From Candidatus Omnitrophota bacterium (lineage in GTDB: Bacteria > Omnitrophota > Gorgyraeia > Duberdicusellales > 4484-171), in NCBI GenBank assembly GCA_021735655.1, contig JAIPGM010000001.1, positions 277,262 to 341,261 of the forward strand: DNA of 64,000 bases, read 5' to 3'. The translations under genes were made by a program, and so were the position numbers. The notes below the pieces were generated by a model, which had not been told where the DNA came from, made no database searches, and was given only the letters and a program-made list of their open reading frames with translations. How positions within the stretch are numbered: position 1 is the first letter of the stretch; each line of letters starts with the position of its first letter. Below, piece by piece: positions 1 to 63,639 of this stretch.

Positions 1-797
1 CCAAAGCCAGAAATATTGGTGCTTGTCAAGCAAAAGGGGATATTTTTTGTTTCATTGATTCCGATGTTAAAATATTTAGCAATACCTTGAGATTAATAAG
101 TGATTCATTTCAATCTTTACCAGAAATTGCTGCCGTTCAAACTGCATGCACAGAATATTGTAGATTCACGAATTTTGCAAGCCAATATCATAATTTATAC
201 CTATATTTTCACATTGAAGCAATCAGGTGTAAATATATTAGGACTTTCATCGGAAATTGTTTTGCAGTAAAAAAAGAAGACTTTGTTTCGGTAGGAGGGT
301 TTAATGAAAATATTAAAAATGCAAGCGTCGAGGATGGTGATTTTGGTATGCGACTGTCTGAGCAGGAAAGAATAATATATCTAAATAAAAACATTAAAAT
401 TGAGCACAGAAGTTATATTAAATTACGAGGCGTACTAAAAAGAATGTTTATTCAATCCCAAGATAAAGTGTATACTTTAATGAAAAATAAAAGTTTATTT
501 AAATTTTCTCCGGATAAAACTCCTCACTCGAAGGAAAAAATATTTTCAGTATTATTGTCGCCTTTGTTGCTGATCAGTTCCATTATTTTAATTTTTGCTC
601 CAAAAACGTATGTAATTTTTCTCTCAGCCTTATTGCTATATTTATTGTCTAGCAGGCAGTTTATCTATTTTACCTTGAAATCCAAAGGGATAATGTTTGC
701 AATTAAAGCTGCTGTTTTTTATTACCTTAATTGCTTAGTTGCTTTCGTTGGCATAACCTGGGGTGTAATCAAGTTTGGGGGGGGTAATATTATCTAA
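1..797 (+). CDS. GT2 polyprenyl-phosphate sugar transferase (ArnC/GtrB-like), 5'-truncated by the window edge
   Basis: Frame-3 translation from nt 3 gives KARNIGACQAKGDILCFIDSDV (DxD region). It continues into ORF 87..797. The C-terminal ~90 aa form hydrophobic helices, typical of ArnC/GtrB-type GT2. Stop TAA 795-797 overlaps the next ATG. Confidence 0.7.
   Translation, partial: KARNIGACQAKGDIFCFIDSDVKIFSNTLRLISDSFQSLPEIAAVQTACTEYCRFTNFASQYHNLYLYFHIEAIRCKYIRTFIGNCFAVKKEDFVSVGGFNENIKNASVEDGDFGMRLSEQERIIYLNKNIKIEHRSYIKLRGVLKRMFIQSQDKVYTLMKNKSLFKFSPDKTPHSKEKIFSVLLSPLLLISSIILIFAPKTYVIFLSALLLYLLSSRQFIYFTLKSKGIMFAIKAAVFYYLNCLVAFVGITWGVIKFGGGNII
777..784. repeat. G8 homopolymer inside the 3' end of the GT2 gene (codes ..FGGGNII*)
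   Basis: Direct read of gggggggg at 777-784 in an AT-rich background. Confidence 0.9.
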
Positions 798-3721: not shown

Positions 3722-3872
3722 AGGCCTTTCGACTTAAAGGTTAGGGAAATTTTTTAAGAAATACGATTAAAAAAGTATTTGATTCTATATAGAATATGAT
3801 AAAATTAAGGGATAAAGAAGTGTGTTTTTATATTAGATGCACAATTTACAATGCTAAAGGGAGGTGTCCAAA

Positions 3873-4625
3873 ATGATTAGGACCATGGAAACTTTATGTT
3901 TTGCGGCTTTGATTTTTGCAATAACATTTGCTTTTACTCCATTAGCTTTAGCTTATGATTTAAGTAAGTATTACCCTTTAAATGAAGGTGATAGTTGGGA
4001 GTATTTAACAAGCGGAATAGGCTACGTTGAGGGTGGAGCAGATAAGGCAGAATTTTCCGATATGATTGAAGTAGATAAAATAGAATCAAAAGAATCTATT
4101 TCCGGTAAAAGGACCATGGTAAAGGTTTCGGGAGCCTTAGAGGAAAAAGAATGTTTGGCTGTAGACTCAGAAGGACTAAAACTGTACAAGTTAATAGATG
4201 GTCCAGGTGGTTATGATATATTTACCCCGCCGTTCATGCAGTTGGCAAATCTTGCAGTTGGAGAGAGTAAAACTTTCTTAAGCAATGCAATCGGGTATGG
4301 TGATCGCTCAAGTGAAGGAGCCAGACTGAATACAAATACGATAACATTGGAATCAGTGGAAAGAGTAGAAGTTCCCGCAGGATTATTTGATGATTGCCTT
4401 AAATTTACGTCGACGGGTGAAAGAGCCTACGCAGATGGCAATTATGAAAATATTGAGTCTACCGTTTGGCTTGCTTTAGGGGTAGGTGTAGTTAAGGCTG
4501 ATTATATTTATATCGAACATGATTTTTCTTCAGGCGAGGATAGTACTACTACCAACAAGCGAAATTTGGTTTCAGCAAAGGTAAATGGTCAACAAATCGG
4601 AACTCCAAAGGAAAGTCAAGAATAA
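3873..4625 (+). CDS. hypothetical secreted protein (signal peptide, cleavage near ALA-YD)
   Basis: ATG at 3873 preceded by RBS AAGGGAGGTG. The ORF track begins at GTG 3864. Hydrophobic N-terminus. No recognisable family. Confidence 0.4.
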   Translation: MIRTMETLCFAALIFAITFAFTPLALAYDLSKYYPLNEGDSWEYLTSGIGYVEGGADKAEFSDMIEVDKIESKESISGKRTMVKVSGALEEKECLAVDSEGLKLYKLIDGPGGYDIFTPPFMQLANLAVGESKTFLSNAIGYGDRSSEGARLNTNTITLESVERVEVPAGLFDDCLKFTSTGERAYADGNYENIESTVWLALGVGVVKADYIYIEHDFSSGEDSTTTNKRNLVSAKVNGQQIGTPKESQE

Positions 4626-4725
4626 TAAGGCCAGCGTGCAAGTTTTAGCTAATGAAACTTGATAATTTTTTTATTGCAGTTTCATAAATCCTTCTATACG
4701 ATTCAAATTCAATATTACAATTTAT

Positions 4726-4734
4726 GGGGGGGGG
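4726..4734. repeat. G9 homopolymer in the intergenic region upstream of the GT4 gene
   Basis: Direct read: tttatggggggggg ttaatcc. This is the longest G run in the window. It lies ~120 nt upstream of ATG 4856. Confidence 0.9.
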
Positions 4735-4855
4735 TTAATCCGATCAACATGTGAAGTTCCTCATGAATTGCAGTCTTATCAAAATACGCATAAACATAAA
4801 ATACGAATTAATAAAGATGTTAAGCTATATATAGTTGATAGTTGTAGGGCGAAAA

Positions 4856-5959
4856 ATGAAAAAAATTCTGGTTTTTAACGCTGGAGCTTATATCTACGGA
4901 GCAGAAAGAGGGTTAATTAATTTTATTAGAACTTTGTCTGATAAATTTGAAATAACGGTAGTCTTGCCTTCCCAAGGCCCCCTTTCTAAAAAAATCGAAA
5001 AATTAAATGTATCTTTAAAAATATTTCCGATACCGATCCTTAAAATCTCGCTTTCACCGCTATATTATATTTTTTTTCCTTTTCATTTTATTTTTTCCGT
5101 TATTTATTTTAGCATTTATGCAATCCGCAAAGATATTGAAATAATTTGTAGTAATTCTTTACTTTTAGTTTTTCCGGCTATTGTTGCTAAATTTACCAAA
5201 AAAAGACATATCTGGTATTTAAGAGAGTTTCTGCCTTCTAGTTTTTTGAATAAAGCTCTAGGGGCATTCATTATCAGATTTTCAAACCAAATAATATGTC
5301 AATCTCAAGCTATTAGGGAAGCCTTGCTTGGCAAAGAAAGGGGCATTATTATTTATGAACCTTTAAATGCTACGGACTATAAAATCTACAAATCAGATCT
5401 TGCAAGAAGTGAGCTAAATATCCCTATAAAATCAACGGTTATTTCAATAATTTCTCGAGTGCATCCTTCTAAGGGACAGTATGAATTTATAGTTGATATT
5501 AAAAGGACATTAAAGAAAAATCCCAACATCCTTTTGGTTATCGCCGGTGATATATCGCCGAACAATTTAAGAAATCGTTTATATAAAGCAAAAATAGAAA
5601 AATTGATAGAGGGGGATACTCTAAAAAATGTAGTCCTTTTAGGTTTTAGAGATGATGTTGATAGGATACTTTCTTTAAGCAATATTTGCGTTTTTCCTTT
5701 TAAAAGAAAAGAACCGTTTGGAATTTCTGTAGCTGAAAGTTTAACTTTTGGTAAAATAACTTTTTTTCCTCAGGTTGGAGGTCTAAAAGAAGTACGTGAT
5801 ATCTTTGGTCGGGGAAACGATTTTAGTATAGATAGGATTTGTGAGATAGCCTCAAACTTTGAACCAGCACGAGTAGAAAAGCTCCAAGAATTATATATCC
5901 CTGAAGAGCTTTCTATCGCGACATACAAAAATAAACTTATTCCTATTTTTGAAAATTAA
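4856..5959 (+). CDS. glycosyltransferase, GT4/GT1-fold family
   Basis: MKKILVFNAGAYIYGAERG N-terminus and a C-terminal Rossmann-like domain. Likely start ATG 4856 inside track ORF 4835..5959. Confidence 0.55.
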   Translation: MKKILVFNAGAYIYGAERGLINFIRTLSDKFEITVVLPSQGPLSKKIEKLNVSLKIFPIPILKISLSPLYYIFFPFHFIFSVIYFSIYAIRKDIEIICSNSLLLVFPAIVAKFTKKRHIWYLREFLPSSFLNKALGAFIIRFSNQIICQSQAIREALLGKERGIIIYEPLNATDYKIYKSDLARSELNIPIKSTVISIISRVHPSKGQYEFIVDIKRTLKKNPNILLVIAGDISPNNLRNRLYKAKIEKLIEGDTLKNVVLLGFRDDVDRILSLSNICVFPFKRKEPFGISVAESLTFGKITFFPQVGGLKEVRDIFGRGNDFSIDRICEIASNFEPARVEKLQELYIPEELSIATYKNKLIPIFEN

Positions 5960-7087
5960 ATGAAGCCGTTTAAAAAAAAGATACTTTTTATTATTACCCA
6001 CCTTGAATTGGGAGGAGCTCAGGGTCAGTTGCTTTTGCTTGTAAAAAATCTAGATAGAAACAAGTACTCACTGTATTTATCTTCCGGAGACCAGGGCTAT
6101 CTCAAGGAAGAATTTTTAAAACTCCCATATTTACATATAAAATTAATTCCGGAGTTGATAAGAAATATTAATCCTTTCTACGATTTTATTGCTTTTTTGA
6201 AATTATATTTCTATATCAAAAAAAATAAATTCGATATAGTTCATACTAATTCCCCTAAAGCTTCTATTTTGGGAAGATGGGCGGCTTATCTGGCAGGCGT
6301 AAAAGGTATTATTTACACTGTACACGGTTGGCCTTTTCATAAATTCATGAATCCGATAGTGCATTATTTATATATTTTAATTGAAAAAGTGACCGCCAAG
6401 ATTACAAAAAAGATAATAGTTGTTTCTGAAGCAGACCTTAGAACAGGAATAGAGAATGAAATCGCCGATAAAAATAGAATTTTTCTTGTTCATTATGGCA
6501 TAGAAATAGATAAGTTTAATAAGGTGTATGATCAAAGAAGCGAAATTTTTCCTGGTAATACTGTTTTTACAATCTCTTCGTTTAAGCCTCAAAAGGATAT
6601 TTTTAATTTTTTGAAATTAGCAAAAATGCTTCTTGATAGAAATCCTCAGTTGAATTTTATCATAGCCGGAGACGGACCTTTGCGTAAGAGAGTGGAGAAA
6701 AGGATAGAGTTACTAGGGCTAAGCGGTAAGGTGCACCTAAAGGGCTGGTCTGACGATGTTTCTCTTTTATTTAAAATGGCATCGTTGTTTGTGCTCACTT
6801 CTTTATGGGAAGGTCTACCAGTGTCTTTGATTGAAGCGGTTGTATCAGGAGTTCCGGTGGTAGTCACTAATACCGGTGGCATTTTCGATATAGTGAAAAG
6901 CGGCAATCAGGGGGTGGTCGTCAATCCAACCAATATTTTAGAAATAGAGAGCGCTTGTTGGGAAATATTGAAAAACTATGATAATTGGAGTACAATTGTC
7001 AGGAATGGCCGGAAAAAGTTAAATTTAAAATATTGGTCTTTTGCTAGAACGCTGAGAGAAATAGAAAATATTTATGCTACTATTTAA
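5960..7087 (+). CDS. glycosyltransferase family 4
   Basis: ITHLELGGAQ N-terminal motif; EGLPVSLIEAVVSGVPVV (E-X7-E region) typical of GT4. Confidence 0.7.
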   Translation: MKPFKKKILFIITHLELGGAQGQLLLLVKNLDRNKYSLYLSSGDQGYLKEEFLKLPYLHIKLIPELIRNINPFYDFIAFLKLYFYIKKNKFDIVHTNSPKASILGRWAAYLAGVKGIIYTVHGWPFHKFMNPIVHYLYILIEKVTAKITKKIIVVSEADLRTGIENEIADKNRIFLVHYGIEIDKFNKVYDQRSEIFPGNTVFTISSFKPQKDIFNFLKLAKMLLDRNPQLNFIIAGDGPLRKRVEKRIELLGLSGKVHLKGWSDDVSLLFKMASLFVLTSLWEGLPVSLIEAVVSGVPVVVTNTGGIFDIVKSGNQGVVVNPTNILEIESACWEILKNYDNWSTIVRNGRKKLNLKYWSFARTLREIENIYATI

Positions 7088-8078
7088 GTTGATAGAGCTG
7101 TTAGCGCTTTTCTTTTTTGCTTTTACGCTCAGTATATTTTTTCTTGCTATTTCAAGAAAGCTATCTTTAAAACACAATCTTTTTATCAGAGATAGAAATA
7201 TACCTTATATTGGGGGGGTTAGTTTTTCTCTGGTTTTTATCATTTGCCTTATTTTATTTTCTTTTATTAAAGCTAAAGTTGTGCCTTTTCAGTTTATTTG
7301 GATAATTACCTTTTCATTTATATTGTTGTTGGTTGAGTGGATAGACGATTTGAAGGATTTAAAGCTTAAGGCCAGAGTCCTGATTCAAATCATTTTTGTA
7401 TTTTTATTTCTCCTTTACGGAAAGCAAATCCAGATTTATTTTTTACCAAACTGGGCTAATTATCTTATTTCTTTTTTATGGATAGTAGGGATAACCAATG
7501 CTTTTAATCATCTTGATGTCGCTGATGGGCTATGTGCAGGTATAGCTTTGATTGTTAGCTTGGCATGTTTAGTGATAGCTTTAAAGACTGGAAGCTTTTT
7601 ATTGTTTGTTTTTGTTGCTCTTTTTGGGGTTCTTTTGGCTTTTCTTTTGTTTAATTTCCCTCCGGCTAAAATATTCATGGGTAATGCTGGAAGTCACTTT
7701 TTAGGCTTCTTGTTTGCAACCTTAAGCATTTATGGAGACTATGCCAGCTTCGATAATATTTTAGCCATTTTTTTGCCCCTGTTGGTTCTAGGATTGCCGA
7801 TTGTTGACACATTTTATCTCATTGTGGTGCGTGCTAGTAAGAAAATCTCTCCTTTACGGAAAAGTGATGATCACATCATTTTACGTTATTTGTTAAAGGG
7901 CTATTCTTACAAGCGGTCTTTGGCAAGTATTTATTTTTTAACTGCGGTTTGGTGTTTAAGTGCAATTCTTTTATTGAATGGTCCAGGCCTATGGTGTTTA
8001 ATTTTTCTGATTATTGCCTTTTTGGGAACAATTCTTATGATCATTAAGGCTAATGTCAGTAAATTTTCTAGTTGTTAG
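7074..8078 (+). CDS. polyprenyl-phosphate HexNAc-1-phosphate transferase (WecA/MraY family)
   Basis: Multi-TM protein with NAFNHLDVADGL and other MraY/WecA-family motifs. Confidence 0.7.
   Translation: MLLFKLIELLALFFFAFTLSIFFLAISRKLSLKHNLFIRDRNIPYIGGVSFSLVFIICLILFSFIKAKVVPFQFIWIITFSFILLLVEWIDDLKDLKLKARVLIQIIFVFLFLLYGKQIQIYFLPNWANYLISFLWIVGITNAFNHLDVADGLCAGIALIVSLACLVIALKTGSFLLFVFVALFGVLLAFLLFNFPPAKIFMGNAGSHFLGFLFATLSIYGDYASFDNILAIFLPLLVLGLPIVDTFYLIVVRASKKISPLRKSDDHIILRYLLKGYSYKRSLASIYFLTAVWCLSAILLLNGPGLWCLIFLIIAFLGTILMIIKANVSKFSSC
7212..7218. repeat. G7 homopolymer within the WecA-like gene (codes IGGV)
   Basis: Direct read of ggggggg. Confidence 0.9.
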
Positions 8079-9263
8079 TCCGAGGATTATCCACCAGAGA
8101 AAAGCTACTTGAGGAATAAAGAAAGAGAAATCGACAATATTATGCAGGAGAAACGACAACCCAGCTGCGAATATAGCTAATGATAGTAATGTGTTTTTCG
8201 AAGCTATAAGTATTTTTAAGTTCATTCTTACATAATTAAAAACTATCACTAGCCAGCTTAAAATTCCTATCATTCCAAGCTCACCCCAAATTTGAAGATA
8301 AGAGTTGTGGCTATAGCGAGACCCGGGCAAATAAAAATTGCCTAAACCGACGCCGACAAAAGGGTGTTGTTTGATTATTTCAGTTGTTCCGCGCCAGTAA
8401 GCGACTCTTTGGTGAATAGAAAAAAAGGGGTTGGTTATTTTTTCCGGATTGTTCAGACGTAGATAAAAAACAATTATTGATAATAAGCCGATTACAAGAA
8501 TAGCGGTAATGCTTTTTTTGTTTATTTTTTTACGCCAAAATAGTAGAAAAGGCAACAGACTAAGCAAGGATAACCATCCGCCGATAGATTTAGTAAAGAA
8601 GAAGGCAATAAAAGAAATAAGGACGCAAAAAAAGGCCAGGTATTTATCAAATACCCATTTAGCTTCTTCTTTTTTTTGTAAAAGTAGGCCAAGGCTGATG
8701 AAGATTAGTATTATTAGATAACCGGCTAAAAGATTGGGGTTAATGAAAGGGGCCAAGGCTCTTGATTGCGATAATAGCTCTTTTACAAAATAGTTATTAA
8801 ATAATGCCCAAAGGCTGTAAATGGCCACAAAGCAGCAACTCAGGAGGAGTGTTTTTATCAGAACTATTTGATTGTTTTTTGGGGTAAGCTTAGCGAAGTA
8901 AAATAATAACAGAATGATAAAAAAGTCATAAACTTTATTTAGATTTGATACAAGATCAGAAACAAACAGTGCTGAACCAAATAGGTTTAAGAAAAAAACT
9001 ATGATTATTAAGTTAAAAAAACTTTTCTTGATATTTTTTCGGAAGATAAAAATATATAAAAGGCTAGAGCAAAAAATTACAAAATTAACTGTTGAATCAA
9101 GCATCCTAGAGCCAAATATCGGCAGAAGCGGGTAAAGGAAAATACAGCTAACTATAATTTTCCATATTGCTGACTGTAGTTTTAATTTCTGTTTTTCAGT
9201 CAGAGGCCTGAGCGGTGAATTAAGTTTATTCGCTATTGATTTGGTTAAAGTAATTATTGGCAT
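7998..9263 (-). CDS. O-antigen ligase / polymerase-like (Wzy_C domain) membrane protein
   Basis: ~10 TM helices with HNSYLQIWGELGMIG, a characteristic Wzy_C/WaaL loop motif. Confidence 0.6.
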   Translation of the reverse strand: MPIITLTKSIANKLNSPLRPLTEKQKLKLQSAIWKIIVSCIFLYPLLPIFGSRMLDSTVNFVIFCSSLLYIFIFRKNIKKSFFNLIIIVFFLNLFGSALFVSDLVSNLNKVYDFFIILLLFYFAKLTPKNNQIVLIKTLLLSCCFVAIYSLWALFNNYFVKELLSQSRALAPFINPNLLAGYLIILIFISLGLLLQKKEEAKWVFDKYLAFFCVLISFIAFFFTKSIGGWLSLLSLLPFLLFWRKKINKKSITAILVIGLLSIIVFYLRLNNPEKITNPFFSIHQRVAYWRGTTEIIKQHPFVGVGLGNFYLPGSRYSHNSYLQIWGELGMIGILSWLVIVFNYVRMNLKILIASKNTLLSLAIFAAGLSFLLHNIVDFSFFIPQVAFLWWIILGLTTRKFTDISLNDHKNCSQKGNNQKN

Positions 9264-9351
9264 ATTTTTTAGGTTTGTTACTATTATAACTAGAATTTGA
9301 CATATAGTAAAAAGATTTATATACTTTAAAGGTAGATTTAAAAGGTAAAAC

Positions 9352-21967: not shown

Positions 21968-22067
21968 GAAATTTTAGAAGGTAGTTAATTGATTAAAGAT
22001 GCAGTCTTTATCACGTCGGTTTTAGTATTAACTACTTACCAATTACCAATTATTCAATTATATAATC

Positions 22068-23393
22068 ATGTTTAATTGTTCCGGATGCGGGTATCAATCG
22101 GTTAAATGGTTGGGCAAATGCCCTACTTGCCAAGGCTGGGAGACTTTTGTTGAGGAGGTAAAAAAAACCTCCGGTGGCGTTAGAAAGGAGAAGCGTTTAC
22201 CTCAACTTATCGGTGAAATAGATTCAAAAGAGCTATCGCGGATCGAAACCGGAATTGGGGAGTTTGATCGAATGCTCGGCGGTGGGCTTGTTCCCGGCGA
22301 GGTAGTGCTTATTGGTGGTGAGCCCGGCGTAGGCAAGTCAACTCTTTTGCTGGAAGTGGCTGCCCGTCTCACCAAAAATGGTAAGACTCTCTATGTTAGT
22401 GCTGAAGAGTCAATTGAGCAGCTAACTCTTAGAACTAAACGTTTTCAAAGCGATACCAAAAAACTTTATATTCTTGATGAAGACAATGTTGAATATATCT
22501 ATAAAGCGATTCAGGAGAATGGATTCAAATTTGTGGTAATTGATTCGATTCAGGTAGTTTATTATCCGCAACTTGATGGTTCCAAGGGAAGCATCTCTCA
22601 GATTAGAGGCTGCACTGATTACCTTACTCAGATAGCCAAAACCTTGGGAATTGTTATTTTTATGGTTGGCCATGTTACTAAGGATGGTGCAATTGCTGGG
22701 CCTAAAGTACTTGAACATATTGTCGATTGTGTTCTTTATTTTGAAGGTGAATCACTTTCGAATTATCGTATTTTACGGTCAATGAAGAATAGGTTTGGAC
22801 CGACTGGGGATTTAGCTGTTTTTGAGATGAAATCAATTGGGTTAGCGGAGGTTAAGAAGACCACTGATATTTTTCTTCCTCATCGTGAGCAATCATTTCC
22901 GGGGAGCTGTGTTGTTTGTGTAATTGAAGGGTTGCGACCATTGTTGATTGAGCTTCAATCTTTAGTCAGTCGGGCTTCTTTTGGAGTGGCCCGTCGAAGA
23001 AGTCTTGGTTTTGATTTCAACCGGTTTTCACTTTTGGTGGCGATTATTGAAAAACGCTTAAAATTATCTCTTTCCAGCGAAGATATTTTTTTAAATGTTG
23101 CCGGGGGCTTGAGACTTAATGACCCCGCAGCAGATTTTGGTGCAGTGATGGCAATTATATCTAGCTTTCGGGATAAGAATTTACCTCCCGAGACGCTTTT
23201 TATCGGAGAGGTAGGGCTGGCCGGTGAGCTGCGGCGTGTTTCTAACATAAATTTGCGACTGAAGGAAGCTCAAAGAGCTGATTTTAAATATTGTATAATT
23301 CCTGAGCCTAACCTAAAGGAGGTGGATAAAGGTTTTAGTTCAAGAATTAAAAGTTATGGTTGTCTAAAAGAGGCAGTGAAAGAGGTATTCTGA
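22068..23393 (+). CDS. radA: DNA repair protein RadA/Sms
   Basis: N-terminal C4 zinc finger CSGCG..CPTCQ; RecA-like GEPGVGKST; Lon-like C-terminal domain. Confidence 0.9.
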   Translation: MFNCSGCGYQSVKWLGKCPTCQGWETFVEEVKKTSGGVRKEKRLPQLIGEIDSKELSRIETGIGEFDRMLGGGLVPGEVVLIGGEPGVGKSTLLLEVAARLTKNGKTLYVSAEESIEQLTLRTKRFQSDTKKLYILDEDNVEYIYKAIQENGFKFVVIDSIQVVYYPQLDGSKGSISQIRGCTDYLTQIAKTLGIVIFMVGHVTKDGAIAGPKVLEHIVDCVLYFEGESLSNYRILRSMKNRFGPTGDLAVFEMKSIGLAEVKKTTDIFLPHREQSFPGSCVVCVIEGLRPLLIELQSLVSRASFGVARRRSLGFDFNRFSLLVAIIEKRLKLSLSSEDIFLNVAGGLRLNDPAADFGAVMAIISSFRDKNLPPETLFIGEVGLAGELRRVSNINLRLKEAQRADFKYCIIPEPNLKEVDKGFSSRIKSYGCLKEAVKEVF

Positions 23394-46484: not shown

Positions 46485-46513
46485 TTGACTAAAAAACTAG
46501 TGATTAGTATAAT
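46485..46513 (+). promoter_or_regulatory. consensus promoter TTGACT-N17-TATAAT, 9 nt upstream of the thioesterase ATG (leaderless arrangement)
   Basis: TTGACT at 46485-46490, TATAAT at 46508-46513, ATG 46523. No SD. Confidence 0.55.
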
Positions 46514-46522
46514 TGTTACCTT

Positions 46523-46906
46523 ATGCATACGATAGAAAAAAAGATTTACTACCACGATACTGATTGCGGAGGAGTGGTCTATTATTCTAATTACCTGAAG
46601 TATCTTGAAGAAGCCAGAACCGAATTTTTACTCGATAAGGGTTTGGATGTAGATAAATTGGCCAAAGAAGATACTTTGTTTGTGGTTGGTAGTGTAAATA
46701 TTAGTTATAAGGCTCCGGCTAAATATGCCGATAAGCTAGCAATCTATACTGAGGTTATTAAAAAGAAAAACGTATCTTTGGAGTTTTCCCAAGAAGTAAA
46801 AAGAGCTGATCAGGTGTTAGTTTCAGCAATTACTAAACTTGTTTGTGTGGGGAGTAATTTTAAGCCCAAGGCGATGTCAAAAGAGGTAAACGAGAGGATA
46901 GGATAA
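46523..46906 (+). CDS. acyl-CoA thioesterase, YbgC/4HBT family
   Basis: YYHDTDCGGVVYYSNYLKYLEEARTEF hotdog-fold signature. Confidence 0.75.
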   Translation: MHTIEKKIYYHDTDCGGVVYYSNYLKYLEEARTEFLLDKGLDVDKLAKEDTLFVVGSVNISYKAPAKYADKLAIYTEVIKKKNVSLEFSQEVKRADQVLVSAITKLVCVGSNFKPKAMSKEVNERIG

Positions 46907-47259: not shown

Positions 47260-47364
47260 AAAGCCTAAGTAATTTCAGGCCTATTTCTAAATTATATTGA
47301 CTAGGTTTAACTTTTAGTTTATGATAGGCTTTGTTCTTATAATATATAGGTATGGGAGGTTTAA

Positions 47365-62283: not shown

Positions 62284-62377
62284 TGGGTAGAGGAAAGGGC
62301 GTTCGGATAACACTGGGATAACAAAAGTATCCTGTAGACTTTTATTCCTCGCCCCATAAAGACCCCCACCCCATCCG

Positions 62378-62417
62378 ATTTAGCCCCAGATATAGTTATA
62401 AGGGCTGTTTTTGGTGC
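62378..62417. repeat. 40-bp direct repeat, copy 1 (ATTTAGCCCCAGATATAGTTATAAGGGCTGTTTTTGGTGC)
   Basis: 38/40 identical to the copy at 63096-63135. It contains the AGCCC..GGGCT inverted pair followed by a T-run. Confidence 0.85.
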
Positions 62418-63095: not shown

Positions 63096-63135
63096 ATTTA
63101 GCCCCAGATATAGTTATAAGGGCTGCTTTTGGTAC
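63096..63135. repeat. 40-bp direct repeat, copy 2
   Basis: ATTTAGCCCCAGATATAGTTATAAGGGCTGCTTTTGGTAC. Confidence 0.85.
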
Positions 63136-63210: not shown

Positions 63211-63639
63211 ATGCAAGCTAAAATCAAGAAAATCATAAAGAGAGAAGGGTTAATTATCTTAGGGATTATACTCTGTGGAGTTTTTTTAGCTTATTTAGGC
63301 GGTTTCTTATCTTTTCAAAAGTCTAATTGTTCTTTTCAAAAGTCTAATTGTTATTTTTTTAATCAGAGGTATAAACAACCAGGAACATCGGATAAGTATT
63401 TGTCTAAAGAAAAAATATTAGAAGATATCCGTGGAGAATACCCTCAATATGATTCCGTAGATGATGCCATTTTCGCAAAGGTGATTGAGAATGAATTGAA
63501 GCGGTGTGGGCAGTCAGGAAAACTTAGACTATTGGTTCGGACGGCAGGGTTCTGTGGTATTTTTTTACTTTTTTTGGGTTATCCCATCTACCTATCTATC
63601 CGTTTCATTATCTGGGCAATCAAAGCCTTGAGGAAATAA
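63211..63639 (+). CDS. hypothetical small membrane protein containing an internal 7-aa tandem duplication (SFQKSNC x2)
   Basis: N- and C-terminal TM helices. RBS AAGG upstream. No family. Confidence 0.4.
   Translation: MQAKIKKIIKREGLIILGIILCGVFLAYLGGFLSFQKSNCSFQKSNCYFFNQRYKQPGTSDKYLSKEKILEDIRGEYPQYDSVDDAIFAKVIENELKRCGQSGKLRLLVRTAGFCGIFLLFLGYPIYLSIRFIIWAIKALRK
63310..63351. repeat. perfect 21-bp tandem repeat x2 (CTTTTCAAAAGTCTAATTGTT), in-frame
   Basis: Direct read. 21 bp equals 7 codons. Confidence 0.9.

Follow-up and report, generated by a model that had tools for sequence, protein, structure and literature searches.

The G9 tract and its genes

The window analysed here is a 64-kb stretch (64,000 nt) of contig JAIPGM010000001.1 from the genome of an uncultivated Candidatus Omnitrophota bacterium, assembly GCA_021735655.1. 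Its first 9.3 kb form a glycan cluster, in which a homopolymer of exactly nine G (the G9 tract) lies in the non-coding spacer upstream of a glycosyltransferase gene, here called GT4a. Direct reading of the plus strand placed the tract at 4726-4734, as the original prediction had stated, within ...ACAATTTAT GGGGGGGGG TTAATCC... and with the flanks TTACAATTTAT-GGGGGGGGG-TTAATCCGATC; it is the longest run of G or C in the whole window. The distance of about 120 nt claimed between the tract and the GT4a start at 4856 was measured as 121 nt to the ATG, and another 100 nt separate the tract from the stop codon of the upstream open reading frame (ORF). The spacer had also been described, correctly, as AT-rich (31 % GC, 28.5 % once the tract is removed, with a G fraction of 14.5 %), but its true length is 230 nt and the 210 bp assigned to it count to TTG 4835. 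According to the gene and gap table it is the second longest spacer in the window, behind only the spacer that follows a tRNA gene. The coordinates of all features are collected in Table 1.

Table 1. Position of the G9 tract, its companion runs, the elements of the spacer and the neighbouring genes in the window
Feature	Position	Strand	Basis or remark
G9 homopolymer	4726-4734	+	direct reading; same in Logan assembly L160
Non-coding spacer, 230 nt	4626-4855	+	between the DUF3108-like gene and GT4a
Mini-ORF ATG GGG GGG GGT TAA	4724-4738	+	start codon shares a G with the tract; direct reading
Stop-free frame, 63 codons in the spacer, tract read as Gly-Gly-Gly	4666-4878	+	three-forward-frame translation
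Weak terminator-like hairpin CAAGTTTTA / TGAAACTTG, 9 bp, then T7 at 4666-4672	4639-4672	+	RNA fold
Candidate promoter P1, TTGCAG-17-TACGAT	4674-4702	+	7/12 consensus positions; top of the weight-matrix scan
Candidate promoter P2, TTAATA-16-TATAGT	4808-4835	+	9/12 consensus positions; sole consensus-scan match in the spacer
G8 run	777-784	+	encodes the end of a GT2 protein (FGGGNII-stop); the radical-SAM ATG 797 follows after 12 nt
G7 run	7212-7218	+	codons 47-49 of the WecA-like gene
DUF3108-like secreted protein gene	3864-4625	+	weak Pfam match; upstream of the spacer
GT4a glycosyltransferase	4856-5959	+	Pfam PF00534/PF13692; first gene 3' of the tract
GT4b glycosyltransferase	5960-7087	+	Pfam PF00534/PF13439; syntenic with GT4a in relatives
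WecA/MraY-family polyprenyl-phosphate sugar-1-phosphate transferase	7074-8078	+	Pfam PF00953, E = 1.5e-32; contains G7
Wzy_C (O-antigen ligase/polymerase-like) membrane protein	7998-9263	-	Pfam PF04932; convergent with the operon, synteny conserved

The start of GT4a at ATG 4856 (MKKI...) was established by the alignment of 30 orthologues. The gene is intact, and every residue invariant in the family is kept (alignment A1). Besides an identical NCBI entry, MCF7907372.1, which comes from an Omnitrophota metagenome-assembled genome, 78 homologues of the protein were found in Omnitrophota at 36-56 % identity, and the nearest non-identical homologue among 5.8 billion proteins shows 56 % identity. 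The assignment to this phylum is borne out by the relatives of LysS. The statement that the tract heads a GT4-GT4-WecA gene series is right at the family level (Pfam GT4, GT4 and PF00953). The NCBIfam WecA and MraY matches of the WecA-like protein both stay under their cut-offs, and none of the glycan-cluster proteins reached an NCBIfam equivalog cut-off. Together with the convergent Wzy_C gene, these products (two GT4 enzymes and a WecA/MraY-family transferase) associate the tract with surface functions, as is typical of contingency loci. On the 5' side of the spacer, Pfam searches revealed a family 2 glycosyltransferase (GT2), a radical-SAM/SPASM protein, a flippase-like protein, a second GT2 and the DUF3108-like secreted protein.

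Length and reproducibility of the tract

The premise that long G tracts slip holds for the length found here. In Campylobacter jejuni NCTC 11168 all tracts of at least 8 residues vary and the PhasomeIt program uses a cut-off of at least 7 (PMC6321876), so that G9 belongs to the length class known to vary in phase-variable bacteria, at least 7 and reliably at least 8.

A 130-kb Logan contig assembled from the read set SRR12088349 matches the window without any difference along 16,127 nt, the G9 tract and the G8 and G7 runs included. Since this contig was produced by another assembler, the tract is no assembler artefact; the contig is mute on minority length variants because it very likely derives from the same reads. 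An exact look-up of LysS returned this one contig, from one sample. Exact look-ups of GT4a (with both starts), GT4b, P0001, the radical-SAM protein, LPG_synthase_TM and GT2b found no other assembly on record, and an exact DNA pattern with a variable gap at the tract had no match in the genome contig collection.

The possibility that the run is a sequencing or assembly artefact, either poly-G from two-colour chemistry or a miscounted homopolymer, can be dismissed as highly improbable: Illumina homopolymer lengths may be off by one and both assemblies come from the same reads, but the run is short, internal and bordered by unique flanks, and two assemblers agree on it within long contigs (341 kb and 130 kb), whereas dark-cycle poly-G artefacts are long and occur at read ends.

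Over-representation of G runs in the glycan cluster

The composition of the whole window predicts 0.06 runs of at least nine G per 64 kb when nucleotides are drawn independently and 0.22 under a first-order Markov model, and this expectation alone makes G9 only mildly unusual. When the G fraction of the spacer is used, the expectation falls to 5e-6 in the spacer and 8e-5 in all ~3.3 kb of non-coding DNA of the window. Only three runs of G or C of at least 7 residues were found in the window, namely G9, G8 and G7, and all of them fall in the glycan cluster, which contains no G6; the remaining 54.7 kb carry five G6 runs (18167, 29849, 50461, 55858 and 56999) and none of at least 7. Extrapolation of run lengths gives about 0.2 runs of at least 7 expected in the cluster versus 3 observed (P about 0.002, calculated post hoc). 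No C run of at least 6 is present in the window. In ~243 kb of low-GC Omnitrophota DNA taken from the loci of relatives, eight runs of at least 7 and none of at least 8 were counted, and prokaryotic genomes in general contain fewer poly-G and poly-C runs than expected (PMC2831843). The tract lies beyond compositional chance and is clearly non-random, being over-represented when set against either the composition or the remaining sequence.

A scan of the window for other types of simple sequence repeats gave nothing notable. A 21-nt tandem repeat (63310-63357, 2.3 copies, 96 % identical) is present inside a small ORF at 63211-63639.

The GC skew is uniformly and strongly positive over positions 1-64000 (14,001 G versus 9,717 C), with nearly all genes on the plus strand. 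The GC content of the glycan cluster (first ~10 kb) is 31-34 % versus 37-39 % elsewhere in the window.

Promoters, terminator and leader

The clear sigma-70 promoters of this genome, exemplified by TTGACA-17-TATACT at 9297, TTGACT-17-TATAAT at 46485 and TTGACT-17-TATGAT at 47297, are situated about 10-40 nt from start codons. P1 scores 8.6 in the weight-matrix scan versus 12-14 for the clear promoters elsewhere in the window, and by this measure ranks slightly above P2; a transcript from P1 would have a leader of ~147 nt, with the tract at about +17 to +25. The match count of P2 in the consensus scan is not above that of shuffled sequences. P2 lies 20 nt from the GT4a ATG, like the clear promoters of this genome, and with P2 in use the tract would occupy positions from about -108 to -116 and lie ~75 nt before the -35 hexamer. 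The proposed location of the tract in a promoter could not be upheld: no -35/-10 spacer holds the tract and the start site of the best consensus match, P2, would lie ~110 nt downstream. A spacer switch of the porA or tp0126 type is excluded, since no -35/-10 pair surrounds the tract.

The terminator-like hairpin that follows the DUF3108-like gene has a folding energy of -8.2 kcal/mol and a z-score of 0.29, no better than shuffled sequences, and the terminator scan did not report it. Such a weak terminator makes read-through across the tract plausible. When the leader was folded with G6 to G12, the Shine-Dalgarno sequence and the AUG kept the same predicted accessibility of 0.38.

Elsewhere in the window, in the region 22061-22070, a TATAAT hexamer sits 1 nt before ATG 22068, and the TTGACT-17-TATAAT promoter (region 46485-46525) ends 9 nt before ATG 46523. 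The presence of -10 hexamers 1-10 nt before start codons suggests leaderless mRNAs, or mRNAs with very short leaders, in this organism.

Reading frames across the tract

The tract lies outside annotated ORFs and core promoters. An in-frame, translational poly-G switch of GT4a does not apply to a tract 121 nt upstream of the gene, and in the frame of the gene a stop codon (4736-4738) separates G9 from GT4a. The ATG that abuts the tract (4724-4726) gives MGGG-stop at G9, and in in-silico variants with G10 or G7 it opens an ORF of 50-51 codons that stops at 4878, 23 nt inside GT4a. In variants with G8 or G11, a TTG-initiated ORF from 4659 joins the same frame and reaches 72-73 codons. A change of +1 or -2 would re-phase this putative upstream ORF, which overlaps the GT4a start. 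A stop-free stretch as long as the one in this frame arises by shuffling with P about 0.02 for the forward frames and 0.07 for all six. Its overlap of 23 nt with GT4a equals the overlap of GT2 and GT4a in relatives; the stop at 4878 does not constitute independent evidence, as its position is dictated by the conserved N-terminus of GT4a.

The Shine-Dalgarno sequence of GT4a is weak, with an anti-Shine-Dalgarno pairing energy of -3.4 kcal/mol versus -10 to -15 kcal/mol for strong sites of the same genome. This weak ribosome-binding site, the stop-free frame and the abutting ATG allow a model in which the tract sets termination and reinitiation at the start of GT4a.

The G8 and G7 runs

The G8 run occupies a gene junction at which the GT2 stop codon overlaps the radical-SAM start (TAATG at 795-799). 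Insertion or deletion of one G would change the last 3-8 residues of GT2 and the position of its stop relative to the next ATG, and all frames stop within a few codons. The run resembles a Shine-Dalgarno sequence for the radical-SAM gene (pairing energy -11.4 kcal/mol), and its length could tune the coupling of the two genes instead of switching GT2 off.

Close to its N-terminus the WecA-like protein has a conserved P-x-I-G-G motif, whose Gly-Gly-Val is encoded by the G7 run. The Gly codons of the orthologues are mixed at this site, with G6 in L092. A change of +1 or -1 would truncate the WecA-like protein to 49 or 76 aa; the run could be an ON/OFF site, at a length of lower mutability, and is the only one of the three tracts that could act as a frameshift switch.

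Related loci and the lost GT2 gene

The GT4a-GT4b-WecA-like block with the convergent Wzy_C gene is syntenic across many Omnitrophota metagenome contigs, which marks it as a core envelope-glycan operon of the phylum. In L092 the block adjoins LysS and LolC, as in the window.

In at least nine of these relatives a conserved GT2 gene of ~290 aa overlaps the start of GT4a, typically by 23 nt (among them L082, L084, L085, L088, L089, L103 and L108). The same gene is present in the two closest relatives, L161 (56 % GT4a identity) and L163 (54 %), with overlaps of 4 and 23 nt, respectively. The gene order is DUF3108-like, GT2, GT4a in L087 and L088, and a DUF3108-like homologue precedes the GT2-GT4a pair of L092 as well. 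Most GT4a starts overlapped by GT2 have no Shine-Dalgarno sequence, which implies translational coupling with GT2.

No orthologue of this ~290-aa GT2 gene was found anywhere in the 64-kb window. A pseudogene remnant in the spacer was sought by tblastn and by a profile hidden Markov model on tract-length variants, and nothing was detected (E >= 0.5). With GT2 gone from the window and no remnant left, the G9 spacer represents a derived, lineage-specific junction. The comparison of related loci suggested along with the original prediction turned up no relative with a tract at this position, which is where their GT2 gene sits.

Apparent upstream tracts at -202 in three relatives (G6 in L103, G6 in L108 and G9 in L109) proved to be Gly codons of GT2 that differ by substitution and not by length. 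L109 has two coding homopolymers, G9 in GT2 (4798-4806) and C8 in GT4a (5526-5533), both produced by substitution when compared with sister contigs (GGGGGGAGT or CCCCTCCCC in L108), and L106 carries C7 in GT4a at about 997-1003. A frameshift between L161 and L162 was suspected from differing gene calls and was rejected, their DNA being 100 % identical. In L116 the GT4a orthologue is split into two frames at about 700-720 (residues 2-164 and 165-313); no homopolymer marks the break, and the gene is probably either misassembled or a pseudogene. In L087 a nucleotidyltransferase/HEPN toxin-antitoxin-like gene pair interrupts the GT2-GT4a junction.

Interpretation of the tract

Tract length, over-representation and association with surface genes make G9 a candidate contingency locus of a known kind. 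On these sequence features we tentatively read it, with a confidence that stays somewhat below even, as a lineage-specific and slippage-prone contingency element that may control the phase or the volume of expression of the GT4-GT4-WecA-like operon. In the course of events envisaged, the ancestral GT2 gene, translationally coupled to GT4a in relatives, was lost and the spacer that carries G9 arose in its place; replication slippage would then alter the tract by +1 or -1 and so change expression. The favoured route would have the tract in a transcribed leader, originating either from P1 or from terminator read-through, and such a leader effect is preferred to a promoter route because the tract lies in no -35/-10 spacer. 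While G9 would yield only MGGG-stop, the upstream ORF opened by G10 or G7, with its stop 23 nt inside GT4a, would bring back the geometry for termination and reinitiation seen in the relatives, so that tract length would decide on reinitiation at the GT4a start. Alternatively, the tract might exert a distal effect on P2 from ~110 nt upstream. Each step is inferred: that the tract slips, that transcripts cross it, that the upstream ORF is translated and that expression is affected. It appears unlikely that the most specific version is true, in which slippage toggles between the 4-codon mini-ORF and the 50-51-codon ORF and this switchable re-creation of the GT2/GT4a coupling operates as a working contingency switch.

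Several observations weigh against a contingency element. The only second assembly, built from the single read set SRR12088349, has the same G9, G8 and G7. None of the -35/-10 pairs with a 15-19-nt spacer brackets G9, and the tract lies outside the best consensus promoter; moreover, the spacing of 10-40 nt between clear promoters and start codons favours P2, in which case the tract would be untranscribed unless reached by read-through. ATG 4724 lacks a Shine-Dalgarno sequence, and the argument from the upstream ORF is post hoc, having been devised with the sequence already in view. The argument from clustering is tempered by the ordinary explanations available for G7 and G8, and the clustering may be partly coincidental. 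The operon is conserved and stands beside housekeeping genes, so it is not obviously a variable antigen locus. Finally, no run of G or C of at least 6 is present in the non-coding DNA upstream of GT4a in L161, L163 and ~30 other orthologous loci.

Several of these points are shared by the best surviving alternative, in which the tract is a neutral, hypermutable leftover: the loss of GT2 would have created an unconstrained spacer in which a short G run grew by slippage; its length could well be variable, but the expression of the operon would be independent of it. We regard this as quite possible, though doubtful. The spacer is derived and lineage-specific, the overlapping GT2 gene having disappeared from the whole window, the tract is conserved in no relative and lies outside the best core promoter, and G7 and G8 can be accounted for as conserved Gly-Gly-Val codons and as a C-terminal tail, respectively. 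However, general expansion by slippage is not evident in the other 54.7 kb, where no run of at least 7 occurs, nor in the 243 kb from relatives, with no run of at least 8. A pure G9 should decay fast if neutral, poly-G being generally selected against (PMC2831843), and neutrality leaves the abutting ATG and the long open frame into GT4a unexplained.

A cis element of fixed length, acting without slippage of DNA, is improbable. The run could serve for reiterative transcription from a start within it, as known for the G run of Bacillus subtilis pyrG, or it could be a site of regulator binding or bending upstream of P2. A -10-like TACAAT (5/6 consensus positions) occupies 4716-4721, with 4 nt between its end and the run, and a start ~7 nt downstream of it would fall within the run; in Treponema pallidum tprL transcription was mapped to begin at the fourth nucleotide beyond the poly-G (PMC7864442). 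Nevertheless, TACAAT has no credible -35 hexamer, none acceptable being found 16-18 nt upstream, and its best pairing is outside the top four of the scan. No conserved motif or partner site was recognized; repeats around G9 are limited to weak AT-rich matches without a significant inverted repeat, the fold of the spacer searched for RNA structure or a riboswitch is not significant (z-score 0.35), and an Rfam search of 4626-4855 gave no match.

It is very unlikely that the G-repeat acts in the leader as the binding site of a C/U-rich small RNA resembling RepG, with the strength of post-transcriptional control over the glycosyltransferases depending on tract length. A lipopolysaccharide glycosyltransferase controlled by a variable G-repeat in the leader provides a precedent (PMC8295292), and a C-rich intergenic stretch at 62349-62376 lies just 5' of a terminator-like hairpin. 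Against this, a duplex scan of the whole window revealed no specific partner, the C-rich candidate is predicted to interact just as well as shuffled sequences do on average, the window has no C run of at least 6 and the tract would have to be transcribed for the model to work. The hairpin in question belongs to an exact 29-nt repeat, TTTAGCCCCAGATATAGTTATAAGGGCTG, present in two intergenic regions (62379-62407 and 63097-63125) as a hairpin followed by a T run, terminator-like in both; the C-rich stretch, CCTCGCCCCATAAAGACCCCCACCCCATCC, precedes the first copy downstream of tRNA-Met and could be a small RNA.

If G9 does act as a contingency element, it would provide Omnitrophota with a first phase-variable locus for surface glycans. 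To our knowledge, nearly all known cases of phase variation by homopolymer slippage come from cultivated, host-adapted pathogens, and no paper linking Omnitrophota with phase variation was found in the literature searched. Members of the phylum are mostly ultra-small cells with host-dependent traits (PMC10066038), a lifestyle for which switching of the surface would be biologically sensible. Confirmation of the switch would suggest that stochastic diversification of the surface occurs in these ultra-small and possibly host-dependent bacteria, and would show that metagenomes can reveal switches of this type. Should the tract be invariant or inert, it would be merely a rare homopolymer in a spacer made by gene loss.

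Comparison with known systems

A first comparison is with the junction of GT2 and GT4a in other Omnitrophota. Like it, the window keeps an open frame that ends 23 nt inside GT4a and would be translatable from the tract ATG at G10 or G7; unlike it, this frame is a putative ORF of 50 codons with no recognisable family and no Shine-Dalgarno sequence, whereas that of the relatives is a real enzyme of 290 aa.

The tlpB-hp0102/RepG system of Helicobacter pylori, in which a leader G-repeat tunes a lipopolysaccharide glycosyltransferase (PMC8295292), is similar insofar as G9 would be in a leader if P1 or read-through is used; it differs in its complementary C/U-rich small RNA, for which no counterpart was found within the 64-kb window. 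In Neisseria meningitidis, porA with poly-G in its -35/-10 spacer and opc with poly-C over the -35 region share with G9 a homopolymer near a surface-gene promoter, which there exerts volume control (PMC7864442), but their tracts are positioned in the core promoter and G9 is not.

The nearest analogues of G9 are those of T. pallidum and Campylobacter. In T. pallidum the promoter poly-G tracts of tprE/G/J, tprL and tp0126 (~8-11 residues) vary in length within isolates and alter promoter output (PMC7864442). G9 resembles them as a non-coding poly-G that precedes surface-component genes in an organism otherwise poor in means of regulation. The T. pallidum tracts lie within mapped promoters, with the start 4 nt downstream or the tract between -35 and -10, while G9 is outside the best sigma-70-like match; length variation was demonstrated there and is conjectural here.

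In Campylobacter ~80 % of the tracts are in reading frames, where frameshifts turn genes ON or OFF, and many recur from strain to strain, in contrast to an intergenic G9 seen in one lineage. C. jejuni nevertheless offers a close parallel, as there, like here, G runs of at least 7 in a low-GC genome are concentrated in glycan clusters (lipooligosaccharide, capsule and flagellin glycosylation) and absent elsewhere (PMC6321876). By analogy, the nature of the genes downstream of G9 lends support to a contingency function, surface-glycan transferases being the classical targets of poly-G phase variation.

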